The notes beneath the pieces were generated by a model, which ran no database searches, had not been told where the DNA came from, and saw only the letters and a program-made list of their open reading frames with translations. The translations under genes and the position numbers were made by a program. From positions 64,691 to 128,690 of the forward strand of contig JBAYJP010000002.1 in assembly GCA_041665025.1 (NCBI GenBank): DNA of 64,000 nt, written 5' to 3'. Positions within the stretch are counted from its first letter, which is position 1, and each line of letters starts with the position of its first letter. Source of the stretch: Candidatus Magasanikiibacteriota bacterium (GTDB taxonomy: Bacteria; Patescibacteriota; Patescibacteriia; Magasanikbacterales; UBA922). Positions 1 through 44,200 of the stretch are shown here, in pieces.

Positions 1-39
1 GTGAATTTAAAAAGACTGGGACAAATGGTTAATAGAAAA

Positions 40-70
40 AACCAAACCCGCCTAAAGCGGGTTTTTTGAT
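40..70 (+). terminator. rho-independent terminator hairpin
   Basis: 'AAACCCGCctaaaGCGGGTTTTTT' stem-loop plus T-tract at the window start, before the first ACGTG-repeat array. Confidence 0.5.
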
Positions 71-77
71 ACTCCAA

Positions 78-171
78 AACGTGATACAATACACCACATA
101 ACATGACACACGTATCACGTAACAATTGATAAATGATACGTGTTATGTGATATGTGTTACGTGCTACGTGA
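78..171. repeat. ACGTG-family heptamer palindrome array (R1)
   Basis: Left arm 'cacgtatcacgtaaca' and right arm 'gatacgtgttatgtgatatgtgttacgtgctacgtg' are imperfect inverted copies built from G[ATC]TA[CT]GT heptamers around 'aattgataaatg'. Confidence 0.8.
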
Positions 172-173
172 TT

Positions 174-965
174 ATGAAATACACCCAACTCTTCAAAACA
201 TTCCTTCAACGCCATCTCGCATATAGAGCCAGAGTAACTATCTGGGCTTTTGTTGATTTGATAAATTTCCTTATTTTTCCCTTTTTGTGGTTGTCTATTT
301 ACGGAGACCGAATGAGTATTGCCGGTTATTCACGCGCTGATATTGTTACCTACTATATTGTTATCATGTTTATTAGTCTCGGATTTAGTTCGCATATTTT
401 AAAACAAATAAGAACCGACATTTTGAATGGCGAAATCAATGGCTTGTTACTAAAGCCAATATCCTATCTATATTATCGTTTTATTCACGAGTTAAGTTAT
501 AAATGCATTGTATTATTAGTCGCAGTACTCTTTTTTATAGGTGCGGATATCCTGGCACCTTCATATATTGAATTCCCGCATTCGTGGCTTTATATTTTAT
601 CATTTTTTCTATCCCTTGCATGTTCATACGTACTTTCACACGCCACACAAATGATTGTGGGTCTATCCTCGTTTTGGCTTGGCGAGAATTTTGGACCTGA
701 TCGATTGCGTCATATTTTGGAAAAAATTTTTTCTGGCGAGCTGGCTCCGTTGATATTTCTTCCCGGAATCCTTCAGACTGTCGCCGTATATTTACCATTC
801 AAATATCTTTCCTATTTCCCCTCACAACTATATTTGGAACAAATAACACTCCCTGATGCCCTCAACAATTTTTTCGTGCTTGGAATTTGGATAATAGTGA
901 GTTGGTCTATTGTATGGATTATGTGGAAACGAGGGCTAAAGAGGTATGAAGGAGTAGGAATATGA
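174..965 (+). CDS. ABC-2 family transporter permease, type A (module 1)
   Basis: ~263 aa polytopic membrane protein. Paralogous to 1828..2619 and 3475..4266 (all end in K[RK]G[LV][KR]..EG[VI]G). Start moved to MKYTQLF because ORF-track residues MINDTCYVICVTCYVI are translation of the repeat. 4-nt overlap with next gene. Confidence 0.7.
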   Translation: MKYTQLFKTFLQRHLAYRARVTIWAFVDLINFLIFPFLWLSIYGDRMSIAGYSRADIVTYYIVIMFISLGFSSHILKQIRTDILNGEINGLLLKPISYLYYRFIHELSYKCIVLLVAVLFFIGADILAPSYIEFPHSWLYILSFFLSLACSYVLSHATQMIVGLSSFWLGENFGPDRLRHILEKIFSGELAPLIFLPGILQTVAVYLPFKYLSYFPSQLYLEQITLPDALNNFFVLGIWIIVSWSIVWIMWKRGLKRYEGVGI

Positions 966-1750
966 AAAAATATTTCCGCATCTACAAAGTATTTGTTGAA
1001 AACGGCATTTCGTTTCTGGTCCAGTACCGCCACGATACGCTATTCAACCTATTCATGCATCTCGTATGGATGGGTATGATGTTTTTGATTGTCGAAATTT
1101 TATTTGGTCAGACAAACGCTATAGCAGGATGGTCAAAACAAGAAGTGTATATGCTCACGCTCATATGGACTTTGATAGGAGAAACATATATTACTTTTTT
1201 TGGAGGCAATTTACCTGAAATCCCCGATACAATCACCGATGGAAAACTGGATAATCTCATAACCAAGCCCGTGAATACATTATTTTTGGTAAGCACAAAA
1301 TTTTTTCTTGTACGAGCAACATATCGCGTATGCACAGAATTAATATTAATTGGCTGGTTGGTATGGCAATTTGATTTTGCTCATTCTCTCTCCGCTATTC
1401 TATCTTGTATTCTTCTTACTCTGTGCGGAGTTATGATATATTATGCGTCATTTTTGATAGCAAATACATTCAGTTTCTGGCTATTACGTATAGACAATAT
1501 CAATGACGCGGTAGATACAATAAGCACATTTGGCCGCTACCCCGTAAGTGTATTTCCTCTTACTATCCGAGCGTCCATATTCGTCTTTGCTCCGATCGTC
1601 TTTGCATCCTATGCTCCGGTTGCTGTTCTCACAGGCAAATGGCCATTGTACACGTCGTTGTTTATTATTGCCTTTACGATTATACTATGCGTTATTGCCG
1701 TTAAATTCTGGAATTTCGCGATTAAGAGGTATACGAGTGCGTCCAGCTAG
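962..1750 (+). CDS. ABC-2 family transporter permease, type B (module 1)
   Basis: 262 aa membrane protein. Paralogous to 2621..3412 and 4268..5056 (all end in [KR].Y[TS]SASS). Translationally coupled to the type-A gene. Confidence 0.7.
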   Translation: MKKYFRIYKVFVENGISFLVQYRHDTLFNLFMHLVWMGMMFLIVEILFGQTNAIAGWSKQEVYMLTLIWTLIGETYITFFGGNLPEIPDTITDGKLDNLITKPVNTLFLVSTKFFLVRATYRVCTELILIGWLVWQFDFAHSLSAILSCILLTLCGVMIYYASFLIANTFSFWLLRIDNINDAVDTISTFGRYPVSVFPLTIRASIFVFAPIVFASYAPVAVLTGKWPLYTSLFIIAFTIILCVIAVKFWNFAIKRYTSASS

Positions 1751-1823
1751 ACACGTAACAGGTATCACATAGCACCTAACAAATAAACTTCTTGTTATGT
1801 GTTACGTGTTATTTGATACGTGA
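1751..1823. repeat. ACGTG-family heptamer palindrome (R2)
   Basis: 'acacgtaacaggtatcacatagcacc...gttatgtgttacgtgttatttgatacgtg' with inverted arms, between permease modules 1 and 2. Confidence 0.8.
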
Positions 1824-1827
1824 ATAT

Positions 1828-2619
1828 ATGGGTAAATACCTTGCTGAATTCAAGTTCAATATACAAGCATCATTCGCTTATCGCGGTGTAATAATATTAT
1901 GGATCATAGTAACGTTTCTTCAGGTTGCGGTGCTTCCATTTGTCTGGCTTTCCGTATATGGAACTCAAGATAGTATCGTAGGTTTTAGCAAAAGCATGAT
2001 GATAACCTACTTTGTCCTCATACCATGTATAGACGTGCTCGTGCAAAGTTGGGCTGACTTTGAGATAAAAGATGATATAAAAGAAGGCAGATTGAATACC
2101 TTCCTTATTAAACCTATCAATTACTTGCTTCGCGTGTTCTGGGTGGAAAATGGATGGAAAGTCTCACGCCCATTTATTGTCATATTGATTGTGCTGCTTC
2201 TATATCCCTTTATACACACGTATTTTCAACTCTCATTGCACGCACGCCTCGTGTGGATCTTACCGGCAATCATTGCGTCGAGATTCCTCAATTTTCTTAT
2301 TTCAAGCATTATTGGCATGGCAGCTTTCTGGACAGTACGAAGCAATTGGGCTTTACAAATCTGGTGGGCACTGCAAACATTAGCTGCAGGATATGTCGCC
2401 CCGCTTAGTTTTTATCCGCCAAATATCCAAAAAATTATTTCATATACTCCCTTCCCCATGTTGCTTCAAACGCCTATCAATATTATTCTTGATAACATTT
2501 CAACAGAACAAATTGTGAGACAACTATTATTAGCTTCTCTATGGATTATCATACTATTAATAATATCAAATTTTCTATGGAAAAAAGGGGTAAGAAAAAC
2601 AGAAGGTATAGGTATGTAA
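1828..2619 (+). CDS. ABC-2 family transporter permease, type A (module 2)
   Basis: Paralog of 174..965. Start set at MGKYLAEFK (parallels MGKYSTTFK of module 3). ORF-track prefix MLCVTCYLIREY derives from the repeat. Confidence 0.7.
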   Translation: MGKYLAEFKFNIQASFAYRGVIILWIIVTFLQVAVLPFVWLSVYGTQDSIVGFSKSMMITYFVLIPCIDVLVQSWADFEIKDDIKEGRLNTFLIKPINYLLRVFWVENGWKVSRPFIVILIVLLLYPFIHTYFQLSLHARLVWILPAIIASRFLNFLISSIIGMAAFWTVRSNWALQIWWALQTLAAGYVAPLSFYPPNIQKIISYTPFPMLLQTPINIILDNISTEQIVRQLLLASLWIIILLIISNFLWKKGVRKTEGIGM

Positions 2620-2620
2620 T

Positions 2621-3412
2621 ATGAAAAACAAATACCTCAAAATTCTCTCACGCACGTTCTCAAACAGTATTTCAGAATTTTTTATGTATCGCGCGGATTT
2701 TTTCTTTCGAATCTTTATGGGATTGCTGTGGAGTACCACGAGCCTTGTCATTGTTGAACTTATTTTCTACCATACCCCGAGCCTGGACGGTTGGTCTCAA
2801 TCAGATATTTTACTTCTGTATATAACGCTCAATCTTGCATTTGTAGTACAGGATGTATTGACAAACTCAATATTTGAACTGAGTAGCCATATTGCCGAAG
2901 GAAGGTTTGATTTTATCATTATTAAACCAATAGATTCACAGTTCTTTGCAATGTTCAATAGGCCAGATCCCGGAGCGTTACTCTTTTTTTTCACATACAA
3001 TATTCCACTCATATATGGACTCTACCTACACTCTGACTCACCCATACATTGGTTATATTTTCCTTTATATATACTGCTGATTTTGGCTTCAAATATATTG
3101 TGGATGCTCATGCGTACTATTATCATGACATTAAATTTCTGGTGGCAGAGGCTTGATAATATTGGCCAAATTTTAAATTCCATGCAAGAAATAGGCAGAT
3201 ATCCCATATCAATTTACCCTCGACCGCTAAAAATTATTTTCTACACCATATTCCCTATCGCCTTCTCAGGTGTTGTACCCGCGGAGGTCTTGCGTGGAAA
3301 TATATCATGGGTCTCTCTAATTGGAATGTTTATTGTGCTCTGTATCCTATCTCTATTTTCCCGTTTTCTTTGGAAAAAAGCTATTAGAAATTATACGAGT
3401 GCGTCCAGCTAG
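2621..3412 (+). CDS. ABC-2 family transporter permease, type B (module 2)
   Basis: 263 aa. Shares QxLxxxxxIGRYPxSIYP and C-terminal NYTSASS with the other type-B paralogs. Confidence 0.7.
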   Translation: MKNKYLKILSRTFSNSISEFFMYRADFFFRIFMGLLWSTTSLVIVELIFYHTPSLDGWSQSDILLLYITLNLAFVVQDVLTNSIFELSSHIAEGRFDFIIIKPIDSQFFAMFNRPDPGALLFFFTYNIPLIYGLYLHSDSPIHWLYFPLYILLILASNILWMLMRTIIMTLNFWWQRLDNIGQILNSMQEIGRYPISIYPRPLKIIFYTIFPIAFSGVVPAEVLRGNISWVSLIGMFIVLCILSLFSRFLWKKAIRNYTSASS

Positions 3413-3470
3413 ACACGTAACACATAACAAACGAACTTTTTGTTATGTGTTACGTGTTATTTGATACGTG
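3413..3470. repeat. ACGTG-family heptamer palindrome (R3)
   Basis: Near-perfect 19-bp hairpin 'acacgtaacacataacaaa / tttgttatgtgttacgtgt', followed by 'tatttgatacgtg'. Confidence 0.8.
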
Positions 3471-3474
3471 ATGT

Positions 3475-4266
3475 ATGGGTAAATATTCCACCACATTCAA
3501 AAATTCCCTATCCGTCTTTATACAGTACCGGTTGAATTTGGGTTTAATTTTAGTGAGTCAATTAGTAAGTCTCAGCGGCTTAGTTTTTTTGTGGCTCTCC
3601 ATATATTCATCGGGTCAACAGATGGGAAACTATGGACTGCAAGAGATTATTACCTACTATGTACTCGTCACGCTCATCGCAACGATTATTGGGGATGGCA
3701 TTGGGATGGCATTTGATGTTGTGGAAGATATAAACCGGGGAGAAATAATACACTACCTGCTTAAACCTTTTTCTTATGTAAAATATCGATTTTTAACGCT
3801 CGTCGGAGCTATTACTATCAATCTTATGTTTATGGCGCCTCTTATAATTATAGGTGGGTACCTCATGCGGCAGTCTTTTTCCTTTCCCAGTGCAAGCGGT
3901 TGGGTATATTTTTGTATTACCCTGTCTTTTGCAATATTATTTGAATTTCTCATTTTTATGCTAGCTTCACTATCTTCTTTTTGGGTAGTCCGAGGAAGCA
4001 GTTTTATATATGCCACGATACTAATCACTGGATTATTTGATGGATCCCTCATTCCACTCGACTTATTTCCTTACTGGGCATATCACATTACAAGCTATCT
4101 GCCATTTCAATTCATAATTTTTACACCCATCCAAGCTTTTCTGGAAAATATCTATAGCCCAGCAAAATTATTTTCTGTAGCAATGGTATGGATTATTATT
4201 CTGCTTTTACTATTACTATGGGTATGGAAAAGAGGCGTAAAAAAATTAGAAGGGGTAGGAAGATAA
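3475..4266 (+). CDS. ABC-2 family transporter permease, type A (module 3)
   Basis: 263 aa paralog. C-terminal KRGVKKLEGVGR. Confidence 0.7.
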   Translation: MGKYSTTFKNSLSVFIQYRLNLGLILVSQLVSLSGLVFLWLSIYSSGQQMGNYGLQEIITYYVLVTLIATIIGDGIGMAFDVVEDINRGEIIHYLLKPFSYVKYRFLTLVGAITINLMFMAPLIIIGGYLMRQSFSFPSASGWVYFCITLSFAILFEFLIFMLASLSSFWVVRGSSFIYATILITGLFDGSLIPLDLFPYWAYHITSYLPFQFIIFTPIQAFLENIYSPAKLFSVAMVWIIILLLLLLWVWKRGVKKLEGVGR

Positions 4267-4267
4267 T

Positions 4268-5056
4268 ATGTTAAAATATTTTCGATTATACAAAATATTT
4301 TTCAAAATCAATTTCATGAAAGACATGACATACCGGGGCAACTTCTTTTTTGGCTGTACCCTCACTATTTTTGAGTCTGTCATATCATTTTTAATAATAA
4401 CGATTATCTACAGCCACATACGGAGCATCTCTGGCTGGAGTTATGAGGATACACTAGTACTTACGGGTATAAACATGCTTTCAATTAGCTTTGGATGGCT
4501 TTTCTACAGAGGAGGTTTGAGTGACCTAGACAGAGTAGTCAATCGGGGTGACTTTGATTGGATGCTTGTAAAGCCAATAGATACACAATTTTTATCTACC
4601 GTTAATAGAATAGACATCGAGGATGGATCCCGTTCGTTAGTAGGATTTGCGATCATTGTTTATGGCATGACAGGAACAAAATTGTTCGATGTCTGGTATC
4701 TATTTCCTTTATGTATTATTACATTTTTATGTGGGCAAGTAGTGTTATACGCAGTTTTTTTAATTTTTAAAACCGTAACATTCAAATCTATACAAGGCTG
4801 GGCGACAAATGGCATTGCACATCGATTTCAACAACTCGCACAATACCCTACTGATATTTACAAAGGAATAGTGCGCGTCATATATACATACATGTTGCCT
4901 TTGATCTTTGTCGCAACAGTTCCTGCAAAAATACTTACCGGAAAATTTACGTGGCAACTATGTGCAGGTTCTCTCATTGCAGCAATACTCAGCTTTATCA
5001 TCTCACGAACAATCTGGAAATTTGCAGTGAAAAAATATAGTAGTGCATCATCTTAG
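4268..5056 (+). CDS. ABC-2 family transporter permease, type B (module 3)
   Basis: 262 aa paralog. C-terminal KKYSSASS. Confidence 0.7.
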   Translation: MLKYFRLYKIFFKINFMKDMTYRGNFFFGCTLTIFESVISFLIITIIYSHIRSISGWSYEDTLVLTGINMLSISFGWLFYRGGLSDLDRVVNRGDFDWMLVKPIDTQFLSTVNRIDIEDGSRSLVGFAIIVYGMTGTKLFDVWYLFPLCIITFLCGQVVLYAVFLIFKTVTFKSIQGWATNGIAHRFQQLAQYPTDIYKGIVRVIYTYMLPLIFVATVPAKILTGKFTWQLCAGSLIAAILSFIISRTIWKFAVKKYSSASS

Positions 5057-5136
5057 CACGTAGCACGTACCACATACCAAAACCGATTGATATGTGATAC
5101 GTGTTATGTGATACGTGTTATGTGCTATGTGTTATG
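5055..5136. repeat. ACGTG-family heptamer palindrome (R4)
   Basis: 'agcacgtagcacgtaccacatacc ... atatgtgatacgtgttatgtgatacgtgttatgtgctatgtgttatgg'. Confidence 0.8.
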
Positions 5137-5187
5137 GAAAATTTACTAAAAAACGCTAAAATGCTATAATTCACCTCGTCATAACTA

Positions 5188-6183
5188 ATGTATATGCCTA
5201 TTATCAGCGTAAACAACCTCTCCAAAACCTACGAGTACTACAAAAAGCAGGCGGGTTTATGGAATTCAGTGAAAAGTTTGTTTCATCGTGAAAAGCTCTT
5301 TACAGAAGCGGTGAAACAAGTTAACGTCACTATAGAGGAGGGAGAATTGGTTGGGTTCTTAGGCCCCAATGGTGCAGGAAAGACAACAACGCTCAAAATG
5401 CTCTCTGGCATTCTTTATCCAACATCAGGAGAAGCAACCGTGCTTGGATATACACCGTGGAAACGCCAAAAAGAATTTCAAAAGCAATTTGCCCTTGTCA
5501 TGGGACAAAAAAATCAGTTATGGTGGGATTTGCCAGCCATGGAAAGTTTTATTTTGAACAAAGAAATATACGAGGTGCCCGATGCTGAGTTCAAAGAAAC
5601 GCTCGATGAATTAACTGAACTGCTTGATATCAAAGACATCTTGGATGTCCAGGTACGCAAACTTTCACTGGGCCAACGGATGAAATGCGAACTGGTCACC
5701 GCGCTCCTCCACTCCCCAAAAGTATTATTTTTGGATGAGCCTACAATTGGACTCGATGTCGTTTCTCAAAACAATATCCGACAATTTTTGAAAAAATATA
5801 ACACGACCAAAAAAACAACGATTATCCTCACTTCCCACTACATGGAAGATGTGGAAGCACTGTGCAAGAGAGTTGTTATTATCAATCATGGACAGGTCAT
5901 GTATGATGGCGATCTACATGAATTGATTAATACCTATGTTGACCACAAAGTGCTCGAGGTAACATTTACTGAAGACGTGACGCGAAAGACATTTGAAAAA
6001 ATGGGGCGCATAAAAGAATACACGGAAAGGCGTATTGTCCTTGAAGTGCCAAAAGCTGAAGCAAAAAAAGTCGCGACCAAAATGCTTTCCAAATTGCCTA
6101 TTGATGATATACTTATCAATGAACCTAATATCGACGACGTGATACGCACCATCTTCCAACGCGAAAAACCACACAGCACATAG
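5188..6183 (+). CDS. ABC transporter ATP-binding protein (partner of the ABC-2 permeases)
   Basis: Walker A GPNGAGKTT, ABC signature LSLGQRMK, Walker B LFLDEPT, H-loop TSHYMED. Start could be the MPIIS ATG at 5194. Confidence 0.85.
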   Translation: MYMPIISVNNLSKTYEYYKKQAGLWNSVKSLFHREKLFTEAVKQVNVTIEEGELVGFLGPNGAGKTTTLKMLSGILYPTSGEATVLGYTPWKRQKEFQKQFALVMGQKNQLWWDLPAMESFILNKEIYEVPDAEFKETLDELTELLDIKDILDVQVRKLSLGQRMKCELVTALLHSPKVLFLDEPTIGLDVVSQNNIRQFLKKYNTTKKTTIILTSHYMEDVEALCKRVVIINHGQVMYDGDLHELINTYVDHKVLEVTFTEDVTRKTFEKMGRIKEYTERRIVLEVPKAEAKKVATKMLSKLPIDDILINEPNIDDVIRTIFQREKPHST

Positions 6184-6272
6184 CACATATCACGTAACAC
6201 ATAGCATATATCACATAACAAAACACCATGGTCCAATTGTCTGATGTGTGATATGTGTTACATGTTACGTGA
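6173..6272. repeat. ACGTG-family heptamer palindrome (R5)
   Basis: 'cacagcacatagcacatatcacgtaacacatagcatatatcacataaca ... gatgtgtgatatgtgttacatgttacgtg', closing the transporter block. Confidence 0.8.
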
Positions 6273-6336
6273 AAAAAAATAGACAAACCTCAATCATATT
6301 ATTATCTTACGCGTTACTCAATTAACCAACAACGCT

Positions 6337-7401
6337 ATGCCCCAAGAAACATCCATAAGCTTTACCAGGATGAAATCCATCTTCTTTTTTACGCTTATTA
6401 TCATACTCTCAATTACCATGCTGTATATTTTTCGTCCTTTTATATATCCCCTTTTTTGGGCGGCTGTTGTTGCAATAATGTTTTATCCTGCCTACTTAAA
6501 ATTAGTAAAACTTTTAAAACGTGAGGGTCTTGCTTCTATACTCACCGTTTTAACAGTTCTTCTCACTATTTTTATACCTCTCATCCTTATATTAATTTTA
6601 CTATTCAATGAATCACTCAAACTGTACAATGCGGTGACAGAAACCGGCATATTTACCGAGCCGGAAAAAGTTTCAACCTGGCTATCACAAACATTTTTGG
6701 CTCCTTATGTCGAATATATACGCAACCAATGGACGGAGTACGCTGCTTCTTTCGCACGGACGCTGAGTAATTTCCTATTTTTAGGTCTCAAAAGTCTTGC
6801 ATCAAATTCTTTTAGGTTTATCTTCATGTCGTTCATCATGTTTTACACATTATTCTATTTTCTCAAAGATGGAAAACGAATGCTTAGACGCCTTATGCAT
6901 CTTTCACCCCTTGGCGACACGTACGAAAATATGCTCTATGAAAAATTTACATCAACTGCTCGCGCAACATTAAAAAGCACACTCATTGTTGGAGGCATAC
7001 AAGGCACACTTGGTGGTTTAGTTTTTTGGATAACAGGGGTCGAAGGTGCATTTGTCTGGGGAGTCATAATGGTCGCTCTTTCTCTTATTCCAGCGATCGG
7101 TCCTTCAATAATCTGGCTTCCCACAGGAATTATTATGCTGGCTATTGGAAACATTTGGCAGGGGCTGACCATTCTTCTTTTTGGTATCTTGGTAATAAGT
7201 ACTATAGACAATTTCTTACGTCCTAAACTTGTTGGTAGAGACACACAGATGCACCCCCTCATCGTACTCCTTTCGACTTTGGGCGGCCTTGTACTGTTTG
7301 GTATTTCAGGATTTGTAATCGGACCTGTCATTGCTGCGCTCTACTTGTCGGTCATATCAATATATGACCACTATTACAGCAGCCAACTACAAAAAAATTA
7401 A
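6337..7401 (+). CDS. AI-2E family transporter (PerM/UPF0118-like permease)
   Basis: 354 aa, about 8 TM. Motif region 'GGIQGTLGGLVFWITGVEGAFVWGVIMVALSLIPAIGPSIIWLPTG...IDNFLRPKLVG' is typical of the AI-2E/UPF0118 family. Confidence 0.7.
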   Translation: MPQETSISFTRMKSIFFFTLIIILSITMLYIFRPFIYPLFWAAVVAIMFYPAYLKLVKLLKREGLASILTVLTVLLTIFIPLILILILLFNESLKLYNAVTETGIFTEPEKVSTWLSQTFLAPYVEYIRNQWTEYAASFARTLSNFLFLGLKSLASNSFRFIFMSFIMFYTLFYFLKDGKRMLRRLMHLSPLGDTYENMLYEKFTSTARATLKSTLIVGGIQGTLGGLVFWITGVEGAFVWGVIMVALSLIPAIGPSIIWLPTGIIMLAIGNIWQGLTILLFGILVISTIDNFLRPKLVGRDTQMHPLIVLLSTLGGLVLFGISGFVIGPVIAALYLSVISIYDHYYSSQLQKN

Positions 7402-7412
7402 GTACGTGCACA

Positions 7413-7450
7413 AAAAACCCTGTACCATTTGTGCAGGGTTTTTGTTTTTT
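7413..7450. terminator. bidirectional intrinsic terminator
   Basis: 'AAAAAACCCTGtaccatttgtgCAGGGTTTTTGTTTTTT' between convergent 6337..7401(+) and rpsA(-). Near-identical module to the terminator at 12821. Confidence 0.6.
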
Positions 7451-7464
7451 CAATTTTACACTAT

Positions 7465-8675
7465 CTAATTATTTTTCTCATCTTCTGGTTCTGTTTTTTC
7501 TTGCTGAGCTTCTGCCACGACTTCATCTTTCTTACTGTCTTCTTTTTTTTCGTCTTTTTTCTCTTCTTTCTTTTTTCCCGTTCCTTCGAGTCGCAGTCCA
7601 AGACGATGTTCAGCTGGTTCCATAGAAATTATTTCAAAATTTCTATTTTCACCGACTTTAAACTGGGACAAAACGATCTTTGGATCAGTTGTACGCTTGT
7701 CAGAAAGATCAGAAATGTGAGCCAAACCATGAATCTCGTCATCAAGCTTTACCATAAGTCCAAATGGCTCTACTTTGTGGATTTCACCTCCAATTATCTG
7801 GCCTACTTTGTATTTTTCTTTCACCTTTTTCCATGGATCATCGACAAGACGTTTGAGAGACAAATAAATTTTGGACTTATTGAGATCAATAATCTGAGCT
7901 TTTACTTTGTCTCCAACTTTCAAAATGTCTTTTGGATGTCCAATGCGTTGCCATACAATTTCTGAGATATGTACCAAGCCTTCTAAACCTTCTCCAAACT
8001 TGATAAACGCCCCAAATGGAGTAAGCGCACTCACCTGTCCTTCAATTACATCGCCTATTTTGTATGAATCAAGGATATTTTTTTGTTCTTCTTCCCACAC
8101 TTCTTTTTCAGAAAAAATAAGTTTTTCATCATCCATGTTTGCATCAAGCACTTTGACGCGGATGTTTTTCCCGACAAATTTGCGGAGGTGTTCCAAAATT
8201 CTATTTTTGTCTCCACCCTGAACACGAGGATAATTGTCTGGGTTGAGCTGAGACACCGGCATAAAACCCATAAGGGCATCTGCCGCAATCATAAGTCCAC
8301 CTTTGTTTGCCTGAACCACTTTTGCGGTGATTACGACACCGTCTTTGACATATTTTGCCATGCGATCCCAGACCAAACGATGGCCTGCAACGCGGAACGA
8401 AAGTTCCATTTCTCCATTTTCATTCTCGTCTTCGACAACAGTCGACTCGACCTCATCGCCGATTTTGATATCTGAAAATTCTTTTGATTCAGCATATAAT
8501 TCTGAACCACGGACAACACCGACGATAATCCCGCCAATGTCGACGCGTACTTCTCCTTTATCTATAGAAATGATTTTACCTTTGACCAAGTCGCCAACTT
8601 TTGGAATATTGGCAAAATAGTCTTTGAGCAAATCACCAAAATTTTGGTTTGCTGTCATAGTATATGCGTACATTT
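7465..8675 (-). CDS. rpsA: 30S ribosomal protein S1
   Basis: Multiple tandem S1 RNA-binding repeats plus a Lys/Glu-rich C-terminal tail. Start trimmed to MYAYTMTANQ; the longer ORF-track N-terminus has no S1 homology. Confidence 0.85.
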
Positions 8676-8976
8676 TTGTACGCCCTATGTTAACCCGAAA
8701 CATATTCGAGTCCCTTGGCATAAGCCGAGGAGTAATTAAAAAAGCCCGATAACTATACCAGCTGATTTCAAAAAAGTCAAGCATCGTGTACAAAATCGTA
8801 ATAAAAACAAAATTTTGCTTATTTAAGCGTTTTTTAAAACTATTTTTACTTAACTTTAGACACAACCTTCTGTTGCGAATTATATGTGAATCAGGTATAA
8901 TAATCACGTTCATAGTTCAAAAATCGTAAGCCAGGATTGTTTTGACTTTTGATTTTTGATTTTTAACTTTCAATAT

Positions 8977-9632: not shown

Positions 9633-9720
9633 TAACTCAAAAGTCAAAAATTAAATCTCAAAACTAGAACTTAAAACTAAAATCTTATTTTGACTTTTGA
9701 ACTTTGAGTTTTCAATTTTA
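9633..9720. repeat. 'TTTGAGTTTTGA' palindromic intergenic element (family 2)
   Basis: 'actcaaaagtcaaaaattaaatctcaaaactag...ttttgacttttgaactttgagttttcaatttt', inverted arms of CAAAACT/TTTGAGT-type heptamers. A partial copy lies at 8925..8962. Confidence 0.7.
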
Positions 9721-10315: not shown

Positions 10316-12805
10316 ATGAAAATTGTTTCAAAAAAAGAAGAAGGGGAAGAAACAAAATTTGAAGGAAGGGTAGAGCCTGTCAATCTCGTAGACGAAATGC
10401 AAACGTCATATCTTGACTACGCCATGAGTGTCATTGTTTCACGTGCTTTGCCAGATGTGCGCGATGGCTTGAAGCCTGTGCACCGCAGAATTCTCTATGC
10501 GATGTGGGATATTGGCCTCAAACATACTTCAAAATTTAGAAAGTCTGCTCACGTGGTCGGTGAAGTGATGGCCAAATACCACCCTCATGGAGACAGTGCT
10601 ATTTATGATTCTCTCGTACGCATGGCCCAAGATTTCAACATGCGCCACATGCTTGTGCACGGTCAAGGTAACTTTGGTTCTATGGATGGAGATAGCGCGG
10701 CTGCCATGCGTTATACCGAAGCAAAACTACATGCGATAGCCGAAGAAATGCTTTTAGATATAGAAAAGAAAACTGTAGACTTTTCACCCACATACGATGG
10801 CTCACACCGTGAACCGCGTGTATTGCCAAGCAAGCTCCCCAATCTTTTACTCAACGGCAGTATGGGTATTGCAGTTGGTATGGCAACCAATATTCCTCCT
10901 CATAATTTGGGAGAATTATGCGACGGTGTCACCCACCTCATAGACAATCCAAAAGCAACCGTTGAAGACCTCATGACATATATCAAAGGGCCTGACTTCC
11001 CCACCGGTGGTATTATTTATAATGCAAAAGATATTGAGGTTGCCTATGCCACAGGACGAGGCGGCATCCTTATGCGCGCGCGCACTGACATACAAGAGGA
11101 TAAGACTGGCTATTTCAAAATAATCGTGAGCGAGGTTCCCTATCAAGTAAACAAAGCAGTGTTGATTGAAAAAATTGCCACATTAGTTCAAGAAAAAAAA
11201 TTAGAAGATATTAGAGATCTGCGCGACGAGTCAAATAAAGACGGCGTGCGTATTGTTATTGAACTCAAAAAAGACGCCTATCCCAAAAAAGTTTTGAACC
11301 GTTTGTTCAAACTCACCGAACTCCAGACAACATTCCATGTCAATTTGCTCGCACTTGTCGATGGGCTCCAGCCTCGTGTCTTGAACATCAAAACAGTACT
11401 CGAGGAACATATCAAACATCGTCAAGAAATTATCCGCCGGCGCACTGAATTTGATTTGGATAAGGCAAAAGAACGCGCACATATTTTGGAAGGTTTGAAA
11501 AAAGCGTTAGACAAAATTGATTTAGTTATTGCAACCATTCGCAAATCAAAAGACAAAGAAGAGGCAAAACTAAACCTCATGAAAAAATTTGATTTTACCG
11601 AACGCCAGACCGTCGCTATTCTTGAGATGAGATTGCAACAACTTGCCAACCTTGAACGCCAGAAGATTGAAGATGAGCTAAAAAAGATGAAAGAGCTCAT
11701 AAAGGAATACGAAGCAATTCTTGCAAGTCCTAAAAAAATACTCGGTCTTATCAAAGACGAAATACAAGATATCAAATCAAAATTTGCCGATGAAAGACGC
11801 ACCCAAATTGTCGCTCATGGTGTTAAAGAATTTAGTATAGAAGACCTCGTGCCAAATGAACCGACACTTGTCATTACTACGCGTGACGGCTACATCAAAC
11901 GCTTGCCTCCTGATACATTCAAAACTCAAAGCCGTGGAGGCAAAGGTGTTATGGGATTGACTACCAAAGAAGAAGACGTGGTAGATGAGATTATTTCGAC
12001 CAACACGCATGACAATATTTTGTTCTTTACCACTCGTGGACGCGTATTCCAACTCCGTGCATATGACATGCCCGTTGCGTCACGCACATCCAAAGGACAG
12101 GCTTTGGTAAATTTCTTGCAACTCGCTCCAAACGAAAAAGTGAGTGCTATGCTCTCTGTAAGCGACATGAGTAAATATAAATACCTTATCATGCTCACGA
12201 CCAAAGGCACTATAAAAAAGACCGCTCTTGAGGATTTCTCCAATGTGCGCCGCTCAGGACTTATTGCACTCAAGCTCAAAGAAGACGACATGCTCGAATG
12301 GGTACGCCCTACAAGCGGCAGTAATGACATTATGGTCATAACAGCCCAAGGACAGTCCATCCGCTTCAAGGAAGCCAATGTACGGCCTATGGGACGTACG
12401 GCAAGTGGAGTGCGTGGCATGAGACTCAAGTCAAATGACCACGTCGTAGGCATGGATGCAGTCTCATCTGACTTGGTAAAACGAAAAGTCCTTGAACTCC
12501 TGGTCATTTCTGAACATGGGCTTGGCAAACGCACCAATCTAAATGAATACAAAATTCAAGGTCGTGGCGGTAGTGGTGTAAAAACAATGGCAGTAACCCA
12601 AAAAACAGGAAAAATTATTAGCGCGCACATTATCAATAATACTGAAAATAATGACCTCATGATTATTTCAGTAAATGGCCAGGTCGTACGCACACCGCTC
12701 AAATCAATTTCAGTGCTCGGTCGTGCAACCCAAGGCGTACGGGTGATGCGATTTAAAGAAGAGAATGATAAAGTTGCCAGTATTGCAGTGCTTCTGGGAG
12801 AATAA
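10316..12805 (+). CDS. gyrA: DNA gyrase subunit A
   Basis: 829 aa. N-terminal breakage-reunion domain (AAMRYTEAKL, active-site Tyr region) and C-terminal beta-pinwheel repeats (QGRGGKGV, RTASGVRGM, QGRGGSGV). Confidence 0.95.
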   Translation: MKIVSKKEEGEETKFEGRVEPVNLVDEMQTSYLDYAMSVIVSRALPDVRDGLKPVHRRILYAMWDIGLKHTSKFRKSAHVVGEVMAKYHPHGDSAIYDSLVRMAQDFNMRHMLVHGQGNFGSMDGDSAAAMRYTEAKLHAIAEEMLLDIEKKTVDFSPTYDGSHREPRVLPSKLPNLLLNGSMGIAVGMATNIPPHNLGELCDGVTHLIDNPKATVEDLMTYIKGPDFPTGGIIYNAKDIEVAYATGRGGILMRARTDIQEDKTGYFKIIVSEVPYQVNKAVLIEKIATLVQEKKLEDIRDLRDESNKDGVRIVIELKKDAYPKKVLNRLFKLTELQTTFHVNLLALVDGLQPRVLNIKTVLEEHIKHRQEIIRRRTEFDLDKAKERAHILEGLKKALDKIDLVIATIRKSKDKEEAKLNLMKKFDFTERQTVAILEMRLQQLANLERQKIEDELKKMKELIKEYEAILASPKKILGLIKDEIQDIKSKFADERRTQIVAHGVKEFSIEDLVPNEPTLVITTRDGYIKRLPPDTFKTQSRGGKGVMGLTTKEEDVVDEIISTNTHDNILFFTTRGRVFQLRAYDMPVASRTSKGQALVNFLQLAPNEKVSAMLSVSDMSKYKYLIMLTTKGTIKKTALEDFSNVRRSGLIALKLKEDDMLEWVRPTSGSNDIMVITAQGQSIRFKEANVRPMGRTASGVRGMRLKSNDHVVGMDAVSSDLVKRKVLELLVISEHGLGKRTNLNEYKIQGRGGSGVKTMAVTQKTGKIISAHIINNTENNDLMIISVNGQVVRTPLKSISVLGRATQGVRVMRFKEENDKVASIAVLLGE

Positions 12806-12937: not shown

Positions 12938-13513
12938 TTACTTTGATAATAATTTCAAACTTTCTCTAAGCAAAACTCCCGCATCTTTTCCTTCAGAATC
13001 TAAATTATTTACCACTCTACGAGCTTCTTCTCTACTATAACCCATATTCACTAATGCCTCAACTACTTCACCCAAAACGCCACTCGCCTGTTCCCTGTTC
13101 CCTGTTCCCTGTTCCCTGATCTTTGATTTCAAATCCACAACTATCCTCTCTGCTGTCTTTTTTCCAATTCCACTCACACCCGTCAAATAAGCCACATCTC
13201 CCCTGCCAATCGCAGATTGAATATGTTCAAGACTTCCGAGACCCATGATATTCATGGCAGTACGCGGCCCAACACCATTGACTGAAATGAGAAGTTCAAA
13301 AAATTCTTTTTCTTCTAACGTCTTAAACCCAAATAATTCCATGGCATTTTCTGAAACTTTTAAATATGTATAGACTGTTACTTCTTGCCCATTTTTTAAT
13401 TCAACAAAAAAAGGCGCGGATACATGTACTTCATATCCAACGCCTGATTGTGTAAACAAAACAATGATATTATTTCTTTGAAAAATTATTGTACCAAAAA
13501 GTGCAGAGATCAT
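12938..13513 (-). CDS. ruvA: Holliday junction DNA helicase subunit RuvA
   Basis: 191 aa. OB-fold N-domain, twin helix-hairpin-helix (ELLISVNGVGPRTAMNIM / LTGVSGIGKKTAERIV) and C-terminal RuvB-interaction domain. Contains an in-frame (ccctgtt)x4 microsatellite in the domain II-III linker (13081-13110, encoding GTGNREQ). Confidence 0.9.
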   Translation of the reverse strand: MISALFGTIIFQRNNIIVLFTQSGVGYEVHVSAPFFVELKNGQEVTVYTYLKVSENAMELFGFKTLEEKEFFELLISVNGVGPRTAMNIMGLGSLEHIQSAIGRGDVAYLTGVSGIGKKTAERIVVDLKSKIREQGTGNREQASGVLGEVVEALVNMGYSREEARRVVNNLDSEGKDAGVLLRESLKLLSK

Positions 13514-26927: not shown

Positions 26928-26951
26928 ATTTAAAAAATTATAAGATAATAG

Positions 26952-27027
26952 ATGTACGAAATACGAAAACTGCGAAAGGTGCGAAAAATATATTTCGAAT
27001 ATTTCGTAGTTTTCGTATTTCGTACAT
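26952..27027. repeat. 76-nt near-perfect hairpin (TTCGAAT/GTACGAAATACG heptamer arms)
   Basis: 'atgtacgaaatacgaaaactgcgaaa ... tttcgtagttttcgtatttcgtacat' with one mismatch, about 25 nt upstream of the ileS ATG. Confidence 0.8.
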
Positions 27028-27029
27028 AA

Positions 27030-27200
27030 ATAAAAAACACGCTTTCACACGTGCCAAGAGTCGCGTGGTCCAAAGGACTTTACGCGACGGTACCATCTTG
27101 AGCTTTAACTTGATTACAGCTTTTACGGGCTTACCCGTGGAGTTCTACTCATCTTTCAGACTTTCTTCTCCAGGCTTGCCGCTGATAACGGCTTAACGCT
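27030..27200 (-). promoter_or_regulatory. structured ileS leader with intrinsic terminator (possible T-box-like attenuator)
   Basis: Locally GC-rich. Minus-strand RNA reads '..GAUGGUACCGUCGCGUAAAGUCCUUUGGACCACGCGAC..' (T-box-like 'GGUACCG..CGCG') then 'GCACGUGUGAAAGCGUGUUUUUUAUUU' (hairpin + U-tract) before the CDS. An AUC-containing loop 'GCCGUUAUCAGCGGC' lies further 5'. Confidence 0.35.
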
Positions 27201-27217
27201 TTTGTGATTATATTGAA

Positions 27218-27245
27218 ATTATACTAAATAATAACAAAAAGTCAA
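27218..27245 (-). promoter_or_regulatory. sigma70-like promoter for ileS leader
   Basis: Minus strand TTGACT-16nt-TATAAT. Confidence 0.5.
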
Positions 27246-27248
27246 CAG

Positions 27249-27277
27249 TTGAGCCAAACAAAACATCATGATACAAT
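27249..27277 (+). promoter_or_regulatory. sigma70-like promoter for rpiB
   Basis: TTGAGC-17nt-TACAAT, about 30 nt upstream of the rpiB ATG; divergent from the ileS promoter. Confidence 0.45.
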
Positions 27278-27306
27278 ACTCACGTCATACACTCTAAGCC
27301 AACCAT

Positions 27307-27759
27307 ATGTACACCAACCCCCTTTTCATCGCCTCTGATCACGGCGGTTATCAACTCAAAAAACGAGTTATACGTTATATTGAAAATGAACTCAAAGGTA
27401 AGGTCGAAGATCTTGGACCACATGAACATGTTGAAACTGATGACTATCCAGACTACGTCATACCGCTTGCGCATAAAGTCGTTGAAACACAAGGACGCGG
27501 TATTGTAATATGTCGCAATGGAGTTGGGGTTTGTATTGCCGTAAATAAAGTGAAAGGAATAAAATGTGGTATTGGGTATAATATTGCTGCAGCAGAAAGT
27601 ATGATGAAGGATGATAACACAAATATTATTTCCCTTGCTGCGGATCATCTGTCCGAAGATCACGCCATGGCAGTGGTAAAAAAATGGTTAGAGACTGAGT
27701 TTAGTGGAGAAGAAAGACACGTCCGGAGATTGAAAAAGGTTGAAGAAATAGAGAAATAA
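27307..27759 (+). CDS. rpiB: ribose-5-phosphate isomerase B
   Basis: 150 aa RpiB/LacAB family: 'FIASDHGGYQLK', 'GIVICRNGVGVCIAVNKVKGI'. Confidence 0.85.
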   Translation: MYTNPLFIASDHGGYQLKKRVIRYIENELKGKVEDLGPHEHVETDDYPDYVIPLAHKVVETQGRGIVICRNGVGVCIAVNKVKGIKCGIGYNIAAAESMMKDDNTNIISLAADHLSEDHAMAVVKKWLETEFSGEERHVRRLKKVEEIEK

Positions 27760-27761
27760 AA

Positions 27762-27866
27762 ATTCAAAACGCAAAACTCAAAAATCAAAATTTGCAACTA
27801 AAAACTAATAAACTTTAAGTTTTAAGTTTACATTTTGAGTTCTGAGTTTTGAACTTTGAGTTATTT
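27762..27866. repeat. 'TTTGAGTTTTGA' palindromic intergenic element (family 2)
   Basis: 'aattcaaaacgcaaaactcaaaaatcaaaatttgcaactaaaaacta...ttttgagttctgagttttgaactttgagtta', near-identical to the copy at 28548. Confidence 0.8.
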
Positions 27867-28515: not shown

Positions 28516-28547
28516 TTAGCTCGGGATACAATTTCTGCACTCTGTGA

Positions 28548-28656
28548 AAATTCAAAACGCAAACCTCAAAAGTCAAAACTATAGCTAAAAACTAACAAGC
28601 TTTACGTTTTGATTTTACATTTTGATCTTTGAGTTTTGAATTTTGAGTTATCTAAT
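28548..28656. repeat. 'TTTGAGTTTTGA' palindromic intergenic element (family 2)
   Basis: 'aattcaaaacgcaaacctcaaaagtcaaaactatagctaaaaacta...ttttgatctttgagttttgaattttgagtta'. Confidence 0.8.
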
Positions 28657-33893: not shown

Positions 33894-33904
33894 ACAGACA
33901 AAGA

Positions 33905-33950
33905 TTAAAAGATTGTAAGATTAGAAGATTATATCGATTTGTTATCACTC
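33905..33950. repeat. 'AAGATTAAAAGATT' heptamer repeat arm (family 4, left arm)
   Basis: 'aagattaaaagattgtaagattagaagatt', inverted partner at 34300..34352. Confidence 0.75.
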
Positions 33951-34303: not shown

Positions 34304-34352
34304 AATCTTTTCGCCAAAATCTTCTAATCTTACAATCTTTTAATCTTCACAC
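34300..34352. repeat. 'AATCTTTTAATCTT' heptamer repeat arm (family 4, right arm)
   Basis: 'aatcttttcgccaaaatcttctaatcttacaatcttttaatcttc', reverse complement of the left arm; together they bracket the four-helix-bundle gene. Confidence 0.75.
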
Positions 34353-35092: not shown

Positions 35093-35184
35093 AGTTCAAA
35101 ACTCAAAACTACATTTTAAAACTTTAAAATTTGTGAATAGTTTTGGGTTAAAAATTTGATTTTTGACCTTTGAGTTTTGAGCTT
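35078..35184. repeat. 'TTTGAGTTTTGA' palindromic intergenic element (family 2)
   Basis: 'aactcaaaattcaaagttcaaaactcaaaac...ttttgacctttgagttttgagctt'. The right arm encodes the last ~11 codons of the SpoU methyltransferase. Confidence 0.75.
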
Positions 35185-44149: not shown

Positions 44150-44200
44150 AATTATTCTAATTGTTCTAATTATACTAATTATTCTAAATAAAACTTAATA
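44150..44200. repeat. 'TAATTAGAATAATT' heptamer repeat arm (family 3)
   Basis: 'aattattctaattgttctaattatactaattattctaaa', inverted partner at 44598..44655; together they bracket the four-helix-bundle gene. Confidence 0.75.

Follow-up and report, generated by a model that had tools for sequence, protein, structure and literature searches.

The tiny genome of a member of the Magasanikbacteria (CPR) harbors a locus in which three pairs of permease genes, each consisting of an A- and a B-type gene, precede a single ABC ATPase gene. We lean toward the view that the pairs form alternative Wzm-like A/B dimers using this one ATPase, and that lineage-specific RNA hairpins punctuate the genes. The locus would accordingly encode a PF06182-type ABC-2 transporter system of type V, in which the product of one ATPase gene provides the nucleotide-binding dimer for the heterodimers A1B1, A2B2, and A3B3, presumably with distinct substrates for the three pairs. 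The DNA examined comprises a window of 64 kb, meaning the whole stretch analyzed here, plus 4.8 kb upstream, taken from a contig with a length of 440 kb or more. The relevant features are collected in Table 1.

Table 1. Features of the transporter locus and further GNTAYGT arrays in the 64-kb window.
Feature	Positions	Strand	Remarks
GC-rich hairpin	43-66		Bidirectional-terminator-like; on the + strand, A-run before and T-run after
Promoter-like extended -10, TGaTACAAT	82-90	+	Upstream of R1 and A1; read from the sequence
R1	95-170		Inverted GNTAYGT arrays; -28.6 kcal/mol, z = -3.3
A1	174-965	+	Type-A PF06182 permease, 263 aa; lineage 1 in NJ tree
B1	962-1750	+	Type-B PF06182 permease, 262 aa; start overlaps A1 stop (ATGA)
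R2	1751-1822		Starts at B1 stop codon, ends 6 nt short of A2 ATG; -27.3 kcal/mol, z = -4.6
A2	1828-2619	+	Type-A PF06182 permease, 263 aa; lineage 2
B2	2621-3412	+	Type-B PF06182 permease, 263 aa; start 1 nt past A2 stop
R3	3413-3470		GNTAYGT palindrome; -27.3 kcal/mol, z = -5.3
A3	3475-4266	+	Type-A PF06182 permease, 263 aa; lineage 3
B3	4268-5056	+	Type-B PF06182 permease, 262 aa; modeled fold Wzm-like ABC-2
R4	5058-5137		3 antisense and 7 sense units; -35.6 kcal/mol, z = -5.6
Promoter-like TTTACT-17-(TG)TATAAT	5142-5170	+	Directly upstream of ATPase gene
ABC ATPase	5188-6183	+	331 aa, DrrA/ABCA-like; Walker A GPNGAGKTT, signature LSLGQ, Walker B LFLDEPT
R5	6170-6272		Starts within last ATPase codons; -35.1 kcal/mol, z = -5.3
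AI-2E family transporter gene	6337-7401	+
Canonical intrinsic-terminator-like hairpin and T-run	7413-7443	+
GNTAYGT palindrome	37036-37104		Sense array ends 6 nt before ATG at 37111; divergent promoter region
Single GNTAYGT array	53459-53486	+	25-nt spacer, two minus-strand genes
GNTAYGT array/weak palindrome	55864-55909		Ends at ATG (55874) of minus-strand gene
Single GNTAYGT array	57358-57392	+	In spacer
Longest GNTAYGT-type array	62775-62856	+	11 units, including 5 tandem GTTATAT; abuts stop codon of minus-strand gene

The six permease genes are co-oriented and ordered as three A/B pairs, as an earlier note on this DNA had described, and all six products belong to a single Pfam family, PF06182 (ABC2_membrane_6; cutoff 22 bits), with scores of 67-79 bits for type A and 128-157 bits for type B. 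The C-terminal motifs given in that note were likewise recovered, reading ..K[RK]G.[KR]..EG[VI]G. in type A and Y[TS]SASS in type B. The A stop and B start codons overlap or are separated by 1 nt in all three cases, and each pair appears to be a translationally coupled unit whose members evolved together. Aligning the proteins, as the note had proposed, yielded only 28-33% amino acid and 52-58% DNA identity within each type, so the pairs are indeed diverged and not recent copies. Purifying selection acts on all six genes: comparison with the sister species L083 revealed no frameshifts in any of them, and the dN/dS values, also called for in the note, are 0.06-0.12 for five of the genes, dS being saturated for B2.

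A view on the 80 species-representative loci of our comparison set and additional close relatives shows that the number of pairs per ATPase varies between 0, 1, 2, and 3, in the architectures NAB, ABN, ABABN, ABNAB, NABAB, ABABNAB, and ABABABN (N, ATPase). The arrangement is not invariant, as both number and order of the pairs differ among relatives: the order is [1][2][3]N in the window and L083, [3][X][1]N in L085, and [3][1]N in L088, and the pair adjacent to the ATPase is of type 3 in the window, type 1 in L085 and L088, and type 2 in L003. The notion that one ATPase with three pairs is unusual needs to be qualified, because two pairs per ATPase are common in Patescibacteria (about 24 of the 80 loci) and three recur in L083, L085, L020, and L082. 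The A and B trees are congruent and contain at least four pair lineages, as judged from NJ trees calculated without bootstrap from very divergent proteins. The pairs are old paralogues which the relatives gain, lose, reorder, and apparently exchange; the three present here belong to different lineages, which would be older than the Magasanikbacteria, with relatives keeping one to three of the at least four. The synteny of the ATPase and AI-2E genes is kept in L083, L085, and L088, the two genes overlapping in L085.

The ATPase is nearest to the NBDs of ABCA proteins by sequence, and no further ABC ATPase ORF was found within the 64-kb window, in agreement with the single ATPase following three pairs in the earlier note; another ATPase of this type may be encoded in the rest of the genome. 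Among close relatives, the ATPases are 73-83% identical versus 41-51% for the orthologous permeases. In the alignment of 20 A and B sequences, the only block conserved throughout consists of I91, G94, and P103 (B3 numbering), which sit in the loop linking helices 59-79 and 117-134 of the B3 model, which we take to be the place where type V exporters carry their coupling helix. The modeled position suggests that this loop may serve as a docking surface common to all pairs, which would be consistent with NBD sharing by the three of them; dimers formed across pairs (Ai/Bj) or assemblies of larger size are conceivable as well. We regard it as improbable that only one pair, e.g., the ATPase-proximal A3B3, uses the ATPase while the others employ ATPases elsewhere or are being lost. 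Such a division would fit the one pair per ATPase seen in most non-CPR relatives, and the ATPase search covered the window, which is a small part of the genome, but all six genes are intact and constrained where dS is measurable, the loop motif is conserved in every pair, relatives differ in which pair type adjoins the ATPase, and loci combining several pairs with one ATPase are found repeatedly among many Patescibacteria, where the ATPase gene may come first, last, or between the pairs.

An AF2 model of B3 (pLDDT 88, pTM 0.86) gave its best Foldseek match with 7k2t_B, the Wzm subunit of the Wzm-Wzt O-antigen exporter (TM 0.62-0.65, E = 9e-5); NosY and ABCG membrane domains ranked next. The sequence identity to Wzm is just 16-17%, and a permease sequence profile did not match any PDB entry. 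Moreover, Wzm is a homodimer, whereas the pairs in the window imply heterodimers, and a carbohydrate-binding domain was not found on the window ATPase. The earlier suggestion of glycan or envelope export is retained in tentative form, the evidence for it being the resemblance of B3 to Wzm at the fold level. The closest known operons are those of the COG4586/COG4587/COG3694 type, which canonically encode one ATPase with one A-type and one B-type permease of PF06182. The locus shares with them the Pfam family, the A/B dichotomy, and the conserved C-termini, and its ATPase is 54-59% identical to orthologues of Paenibacillus, Chloroflexota, and Nitrospirota, but it differs in carrying three pairs per ATPase and in placing the ATPase last with its own promoter-like site. 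Precedents for shared ATPases are found in the group II ECF transporters, which share an EcfAA'T module. The type I sugar importers are served by the shared (“multitask”) ATPases MsmX, MsiK, and MsmK (PMC7658222). The likeness lies in one ATPase gene energizing several membrane modules, as proposed for the window; those systems are importers with dispersed membrane genes, whereas the window encodes an exporter-type fold with the modules in tandem with the ATPase.

Transcription of the locus probably starts upstream of R1, where the extended -10 element at 82-90 is located. This element was missed by the -35/-10 scan because it has no -35 element, and L083/L084 carry the same sequence (tgtgatacaat) ahead of A1. 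The site directly before the ATPase gene was the top of 30 promoter-like matches within positions 1-7500 (10 of 12 positions plus TG); the sequence aaatgctataat is conserved at its position in L083, and inspection by eye also revealed promoter-like hexamers ahead of the ATPase genes of L085 and L088. Both sites are candidates for active promoters as judged from their sequences, and a second promoter before the ATPase could give the extra NBD copies needed by three membrane dimers. The hairpin at 43-66, which the scan scored as terminator-like on the minus strand (64-44) and which has an equivalent in L083, probably terminates a co-oriented small ORF, found upstream of it on the plus strand in L001, and delimits the locus on the left; on the right, the transcription unit likely ends at the hairpin at 7413-7443. 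In some bacteria, PF06182 transporter operons are located behind ppGpp riboswitches (PMC6003355); a riboswitch search of the window was negative.

Every spacer of the locus is occupied by one of five imperfect palindromes of GNTAYGT heptamers (R1-R5). The double heptamer GNTAYGTGNTAYGT, allowing up to 1 mismatch, was matched 55 times against 0.79 expected. As RNA, the palindromes fold with -27 to -36 kcal/mol (z about -3.3 to -5.6), R3 containing a perfect 19-bp inverted repeat with 20 pairs in the fold, and 4 nt separate the sense array of R1 (135-169) from the A1 ATG. GNTAYGT arrays are enriched here, being present in five of five spacers versus 5 of the 44 elsewhere in the window (Fisher p = 1.3e-4). 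The earlier note had placed them at the module boundaries, which holds insofar as they fill all spacers of the locus; since arrays also occur in five other spacers of the window, the repeats are not unique to such boundaries, and R5 lies between the ATPase and AI-2E genes rather than at a permease module boundary. An alternative ATG was observed 4 nt beyond the end of the array at 55864-55909. Altogether, tandem arrays of period 7-9 are found in 23 of 49 window spacers and cover 18% of the intergenic versus 0.5% of the coding bases. They comprise at least four unit families besides GNTAYGT, often inverted into hairpins, and five start codons have a sense array ending 0-6 nt upstream of them. 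No Shine-Dalgarno motifs were visible upstream of genes in the window. Among the genomes compared, the GNTAYGT motif is restricted to the window genome and the sister species L083/L084; it was not found in L085, L088 or any of the 80 genome loci. In L083/L084 the repeats are located at partly different junctions, including an insertion between A1 and B1, and the palindrome between B2 and A3 is built from a different unit. The repeat copy number did not vary between the two samples available per species, which gives no hint of phase variation.

The most consistent picture is that the palindromes are lineage-specific short tandem repeats which colonized pre-existing spacers and did not give rise to the transporter, GNTAYGT being one of at least five repeat families that jointly occupy about half of the intergenic spacers. 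That the tandem duplications which made the three modules used them as substrates or left them as scars, as the note had considered, is hardly credible. The repeats do lie at every B|A boundary, with R2 and R3 forming near-identical direct repeats around pair 2, but L085 contains three pairs, including orthologues of window pairs 3 and 1, and its spacers of 10-57 nt are repeat-free; the pair lineages therefore predate the repeats. The two pairs of L088 lack repeats as well, the motif is confined to two sister species, the pairs are strongly diverged members of lineages shared with other genomes, and the same repeats stand in unrelated spacers and behind the ATPase. The note's other proposal, DNA operators by which a transcription factor switches each module singly from its own promoter, also fails in the form given and is quite improbable. 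Arrays with ACGT cores directly upstream of A1, A2, and A3 and the position of one element within a divergent promoter region (37 kb) would be in its favor; the scan, however, detected no promoter-like site within R1, R2 or R3 on the plus strand, half of each element lies directly 3' of a stop codon, and the 7-bp periodicity with variable unit numbers poorly fits a fixed dimeric operator. In addition, other unit families form equivalent structures in many spacers, and the B2|A3 element of L083 has an unrelated unit sequence.

A harder case is made by neutral or selfish products of slippage and template switching that are tolerated only in spacers and play no role in expression, although we still consider this rather unlikely. 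Unit number and sequence shift rapidly between the sister species, arrays are distributed patchily in CPR relatives, several arrays outside the locus are single-armed and unstructured, and the five tandem GTTATAT copies reveal recent slippage. Against this stand the inverted symmetry in at least five unit families, with long stems and z values down to -9, and the consistent placement from a stop codon to a few nt before the next start; a long stem-loop in an mRNA spacer would also hardly be without effect on decay or translation. We favor that the transcribed palindromes form long stem-loops spanning these intervals and most likely act as RNA, i.e., as REP-like barriers or processing sites conferring differential stability or translation on the operon segments.

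REPs have been proposed to act in mRNA stabilization and termination (PMC3733652). The window elements resemble REP, BIME, and REPIN sequences as imperfect palindromes that occur in multiple copies between co-directional genes, but consist of variable-number tandem sub-repeats without a consistent GTAG or CGTC head. Another comparison is offered by the TAACTGA heptamer repeats found upstream of start codons in Beggiatoaceae, Cyanobacteria, and Bacteroidetes (PMC4679880), and by the heptamer tandem repeats of cyanobacterial STRR. The window heptamers are similarly tandem and intergenic, often few nt from a start codon without canonical ribosome-binding sites. The unit is different, however (GNTAYGT instead of TAACTGA), the window genome harbors several unit families side by side, with periods of 7, 8, and 9 nt, and the arrays are mostly inverted and hairpin-forming, whereas a Beggiatoa genome has 169 direct sets and one indirect (PMC4679880).

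A recombination role of the repeats, also raised in the note, finds partial backing. R2 and R3 with their flanks share identical blocks of 31 and 32 nt which extend into the neighboring coding ends, and pair 1, bounded by R1 and R2, is 77-89% identical to L083 at the nucleotide level, compared with 64-72% for the flanks. This excess extends to synonymous positions, 97 of 173 four-fold-degenerate sites in pair 1 being identical to L083 versus 147 of 445 in the flanking genes (p = 2e-7). Stronger constraint could partly account for the similarity, although the synonymous sites argue otherwise. At least pair 1 thus looks laterally exchanged with the sister species, and the palindromes may secondarily have served as homology patches for local gene conversion.

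The ORF listing returned the six permease genes and the ATPase gene at the coordinates given in the earlier note, and the permeases belong to one family rather than to unrelated ones: all six match Pfam PF06182 (ABC2_membrane_6), with scores of 128-157 bits for type B and 67-79 bits for type A at a gathering cutoff of 22, and none of the NCBIfam models fits them. The C-terminal signatures that had been ascribed to the two types were likewise recovered and are kept in relatives as Y[TSA]SASS (B) and E[GA][VI]G (A), as judged from sequence comparison, while identities of 28-33% within each type agree with the view that the pairs are diverged and not recent copies. In all three pairs, the start codon of the B gene overlaps the stop codon of the A gene or follows 1 nt later, which implies translational coupling. 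The ATPase contains a PF00005 domain (E = 1e-27), whose Walker A, signature and Walker B motifs (GPNGAGKTT, LSLGQ, LFLDEPT) are invariant in a 12-sequence alignment, and scores under every cutoff of the NCBIfam equivalogs. Its sequence was located on a 440-kb ENA metagenome contig, and a protein that differs from it solely by lacking two N-terminal residues carries the annotation Candidatus Magasanikbacteria. It is indeed alone in the window, as a phmmer search against all window ORFs matches only the ATPase itself; an Rfam scan of the permease/ATPase locus matched no family. The AI-2E family gene follows the ATPase in every Magasanikbacteria locus examined, namely the window, the sister-species locus L083 and the loci L085 and L088 of close relatives, with an overlap of 38 nt between the two genes in L085, and may be a functional part of the ATPase operon.

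Coordinates of genes, junctions and repeat arrays (window positions unless a retrieved locus, L, is named)
Feature	Coordinates	Description	Source
A1	174-965	type-A permease	ORF listing
B1	962-1750	type-B permease	ORF listing
A2	1828-2619	type-A permease	ORF listing
B2	2621-3412	type-B permease	ORF listing
A3	3475-4266	type-A permease	ORF listing
B3	4268-5056	type-B permease	ORF listing
ABC ATPase	5188-6183		ORF listing
AI-2E family gene	6337-7401	PF01594	
A-to-B junctions	945-961, 2600-2620, 4247-4267	with Shine-Dalgarno-like motif	
Spacer arrays	8940-8970, 9647-9719, 27754-27862, 28547-28649, 35078-35189, 33900-33931, 34318-34348	other unit families	
Spacer arrays	42031-42138, 44150-44187, 44602-44644, 45092-45194, 49363-49483, 26928-27306	other unit families	
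-/+ palindromes	L103:5355-5533, L105:3581-3672, L106:4651-4712	GTTAYGT units, low-GC contigs of other samples	
-/+ palindromes	L120:2720-2775, L159:9928-10005	GTTAYGT units, low-GC contigs of other samples	

Structure prediction was applied to one protein, B3, and the resulting AF2 model (pLDDT 88, pTM 0.86) adopts the fold of an ABC-2 or type V membrane domain, its best Foldseek matches being Wzm chains of the O-antigen exporter WzmWzt (TM 0.62-0.65, E = 9e-5), followed by NosY and then by ABCG membrane domains. A sequence-profile search of the PDB with a profile of 20 permeases gave no match at E <= 10, and the ATPase is nearest to the NBDs of ABCA proteins and to the uncharacterised structure 4yer. 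The sole block conserved across 20 aligned A and B proteins comprises I91, G94 and P103 (B3 numbering) and is placed by the model in the TM2-TM3 loop, between helices 59-79 and 117-134, where type V exporters have their NBD coupling helix. This motif is consistent with a docking of all pairs on one ATPase, without proving it. From the single ATPase ORF in 64 kb, together with the loop motif and the purifying selection found in all pairs, we infer that one ATPase may energise several distinct membrane modules.

A survey of one genome per species around orthologues of the ATPase yielded 80 loci, in which neighbouring permeases were classified by HMMs built from the A and B proteins of the window, with one iteration on the matches; the closest relatives (L083-L088) were found through an exact-protein look-up. 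The number of modules varies among related genomes, from one to three pairs per ATPase. Loci of Paenibacillus, Chloroflexota and Nitrospirota, i.e. outside the Patescibacteria (CPR), mostly contain one pair (N-A-B or A-B-N, N denoting the ATPase), and two pairs were recorded in about 24 of the 80 loci, nearly all of them from Patescibacteria, in the orders ABABN, ABNAB or NABAB. Most multi-pair CPR relatives carry two pairs; three were found in L020 and L082 (ABABNAB), in the sister-species loci L083/L084 (ATPase 82-83% identical to that of the window) and in L085/L086 (80%), and L087/L088 (also 80%) contain two. These closest relatives share with the window a pseudouridine synthase gene upstream and the AI-2E transporter gene downstream. 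BLASTP comparisons and neighbour-joining trees gave congruent groupings of A and B proteins, in which at least four pair lineages can be distinguished; the deep groupings are provisional because the trees were calculated without bootstrap. The lineages are ordered [1][2][3]N in the window and L083, [3][X][1]N in L085, [3][1]N in L088, [X][2]N in L003, [X][1]N in L005 and [1]N in L007, L009 and L011, and Kerfeldbacteria (L010, L013) hold counterparts of lineages 3 and X. Since pair lineages are shared across genomes, the multi-pair state is old; modules have undergone loss and rearrangement, and different pairs stand adjacent to the ATPase. The ATPase is 54-59% identical to orthologues from other phyla and 73-83% within the group, and orthologous permeases are only 41-51% identical where the ATPase shows 73-80%, indicating a far higher rate of evolution in the membrane proteins than in the motor.

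The dN/dS comparison proposed in the earlier note could be carried out for orthologues; the paralogues, at 28-33% identity, are saturated at synonymous sites, and the window genes were therefore compared with those of L083. The ratios are 0.06-0.12 in five permease genes, dS being saturated in B2. Pair 1 shares 77-89% nucleotide identity with L083, a value that falls to 64-72% in the flanking genes, in pairs 2 and 3 and in the ATPase and AI-2E genes, and 97 of its 173 four-fold-degenerate sites are identical, compared to 147 of 445 in miaA, miaB, rluA and the genes of the ATPase and the AI-2E transporter (Fisher p = 2e-7). R1 and R2, the first two of the five palindromes in the spacers of the locus, delimit this tract of high identity, and both lineages co-occur in sample ERZ27249449. 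These sequence data are most simply explained by an exchange of pair 1 between the window and L083 lineages after their split.

The palindromes R1-R5 are inverted arrays of the unit G[ATCG]TA[CT]GT (GNTAYGT), in which the antisense units start at the stop codon before them or within it, and the sense units stop 4-6 nt before the ATG of A1, A2 and A3. As RNA, they are predicted to fold at -27 to -36 kcal/mol (z about -3.3 to -5.5) into stems rich in A-U and G-U pairs. The double-heptamer pattern GNTAYGTGNTAYGT, with at most one mismatch, occurs 55 times against an expectation of 0.79, always within spacers or at their edges. The arrays, of 3-11 units each, are dispersed through the spacers, with five more in unrelated spacers of the window; those next to A1, A2, A3, the 37111 gene and the 55874(-) gene end 0-6 nt from the start codon. 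All five spacers of the locus contain them, compared to 5 of 44 elsewhere (p = 1.3e-4), an enrichment best explained by local spread through gene conversion. R2 and R3 have 31-nt and 32-nt blocks of identical sequence in common, which reach into the last seven codons of B1/B2 and the first four codons of A2/A3; this identity is missing in L083 and therefore reflects recent local gene conversion.

Among the loci compared, the GNTAYGT motif is confined to the window genome (L001, L002) and its sister species (L083/L084); none of the 80 genome loci contains it, nor do L085-L088. The latter hold multiple pairs all the same, which contradicts the proposal that the repeats are duplication junctions. 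The alternative proposal of module-specific operators does not accord with the occurrence of the same arrays in five unrelated spacers, nor with GNTAYGT being one of several repeat families. A1 and B1, overlapping genes in the window, are set apart in the sister species by an insertion of 197 nt (L083:5521-5718, L084:5432-5629), which contains a different, GC-richer hairpin-like element and then six GNTAYGT units that stop 4 nt before the ATG of B1. The B2|A3 junction of L083 carries a palindrome of the unrelated unit AAAGTAY, and a canonical terminator stands where the window has R5. R1-R5 themselves are not recognised as intrinsic terminators, as no T-run follows the stems and the scan, which finds canonical terminator-like sites at 44-64 and 7413-7443, reports none at these elements. 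Phase variation via repeat copy number was also considered and set aside, since L002 equals the window over 6.9 kb and none of the 10 positions differing between L083 and L084 concerns repeat number, although two samples per species make this weak evidence. A metagenome scan for three consecutive heptamers gave mixed matches, including high-GC microsatellites; among the matches listed, a few low-GC contigs (L103, L105, L106, L120 and L159) carry comparable -/+ palindromes of GTTAYGT units, and the palindrome of L105 ends in ...GTGATTATG, the same as at A1.

The STRR elements of cyanobacteria are direct repeats of heptamers that lie a short way before start codons, in genomes where Shine-Dalgarno sites are seldom used. 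The TAACTGA repeats are arranged in the same way and in similarly Shine-Dalgarno-poor genomes (PMC4679880). The window arrays have their closest parallels in these two groups and resemble both in that tandem heptamers are confined to intergenic DNA and end near a start codon in a spacer without a Shine-Dalgarno site, but their unit is none of those that specify these groups (TAACTGA, STRR1-3). There is also similarity to REP elements (PMC3733652), from which, as from TAACTGA/STRR, the elements described here are set apart by their unit sequence, their inverted architecture and the coexistence of several families. Membership in REP/REPIN was rejected, as no GTAG or CGTC tetranucleotide stands at one end of a 20-40-bp palindrome and the left arms have no consistent head, starting with ACACGTAAC in R2 and R3, CACGTAGC in R4, CACATAGC in R5 and ACACGTACC at 37 kb. 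TIGR arrays, which are long and composed of dual-spacer units of ~36 nt beside a Nop-domain tas gene (PMC12045711), were likewise rejected, since by their description they differ in both unit size and context from the 7-nt units found here.

TRF analysis revealed at least four further unit families in window spacers, namely AAAACTC/GAGTTTT, AAAGATTA (period 8), AATTATTCT (period 9) and an ACGAAAT-like unit, whose arrays are mostly inverted pairs abutting start codons and often form long hairpins. Altogether, arrays of period 7-9 occur in 23 of the 49 window spacers and occupy 18% of the intergenic as opposed to 0.5% of the coding bases. The window and L083 contain ~6 such arrays per 10 kb, one Uhrbacteria and one Levyibacteria locus ~4, and most relatives none. 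The Levyibacteria locus also has them at ABC module junctions: L019 (N-A-B-A-B) carries arrays at the ATPase|A and B|A junctions (11010-11037, 12631-12665), just upstream of start codons, with units (GCTAATC, AGAGTTGC) unrelated to those of the window. No GGAGG-like Shine-Dalgarno motifs were seen in the AT-rich leaders of most window genes, the exception being the B genes, which have GAAGGnGTAGG 6-10 nt upstream of the start, encoding the conserved C-terminal EG[VI]G of the A protein.

The best promoter-like site within 1-7500 is TTTACT-17-TGcTATAAT (5142-5170), between R4 and the ATPase gene; this site, aaatgctataat, is conserved in L083, and promoter-like hexamers were also recognised by eye upstream of the ATPase in L085 and L088. 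An extended -10 element, TGaTACAAT (82-90), lies upstream of R1 and is likewise conserved in L083, and the scan gave no promoter-like site within R1, R2 or R3. In L085, the pairs must be co-transcribed, given B|A spacers of 37 and 10 nt. A putative dedicated ATPase promoter would fit the supply of two NBDs per dimer for three membrane dimers.

The transporter belongs to the PF06182/COG4586-4587-3694 group, which has no assigned function; the canonical operon of this group encodes one A and one B protein per ATPase, differing from the three pairs of the window, L083 and L085. ECF transporters are known for shared energising modules. Multitask ATPases serve type I importers (PMC7658222), and the sharing proposed here resembles both cases, except that the fold is of the exporter type and all modules are encoded in one locus. 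In some bacteria, operons of the COG4586-4587-3694 type are controlled by ppGpp riboswitches (PMC6003355), an association that was the sole functional mention found in the literature on PF06182, COG4587 and COG3694; neither ATPase sharing in ABC-2 systems nor multi-pair PF06182 operons were found described in the literature searched.

The best-supported model is a shared-ATPase, multi-cassette ABC-2 system with cassettes varying among relatives, at least one of which looks laterally exchanged, overlaid by tandem-repeat hairpins that are spread genome-wide, are specific to the lineage and probably have their effect on mRNA. CPR bacteria have very few transporters, and their hosts supply lipids and other building blocks. 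This ABC system is one of the few they keep, and they multiply, reorder and apparently exchange its fast-evolving membrane pairs around a highly conserved ATPase, which points to substrate or partner specificity having diversified on a fixed engine. A more far-reaching joint reading, which we regard as rather improbable, would combine a true cassette system in the PF06182 locus with inverted arrays serving as general gene punctuation in Shine-Dalgarno-less CPR. In the Magasanikbacteria lineage of the window, and in a patchy manner elsewhere in the CPR, arrays of 7-9-nt tandem repeats would then form hairpins between stop and start codons that set the points of mRNA processing or of entry into translation, and membrane-dimer modules of different specificity would use one common ATPase while being shuffled and swapped between co-resident species at hairpin boundaries. 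If true, such cassette exchange would tune the traffic of an obligate episymbiont across its envelope. The inverted short tandem repeats abutting stop and start codons in about half of the window spacers, coupled with the lack of Shine-Dalgarno use, offer a testable lead on operon expression in CPR, and their spread is a warning against reading such repeats as locus-specific signals.

Perfect or near-perfect heptamer arrays were also observed within long ORFs (13087-13118, 50719-50750, 24344-24374, 24532-24560), e.g. 4.6 copies of CCTGTTC inside a RuvA-like ORF (12938-13513, minus strand) and 4.6 copies of AATTTTG inside the ORF 50430-51281 (minus strand), a 7-nt period being unexpected within coding sequence. 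Finally, a group I intron of 223 nt (Rfam RF00028, 87.9 bits, 60495-60723) splits the anticodon loop of a tRNA-Phe(GAA) gene (60448-60743, minus strand), the split tRNA being found by ARAGORN with introns allowed, and a tRNA-Ala gene (60781-60856) adjoins it.
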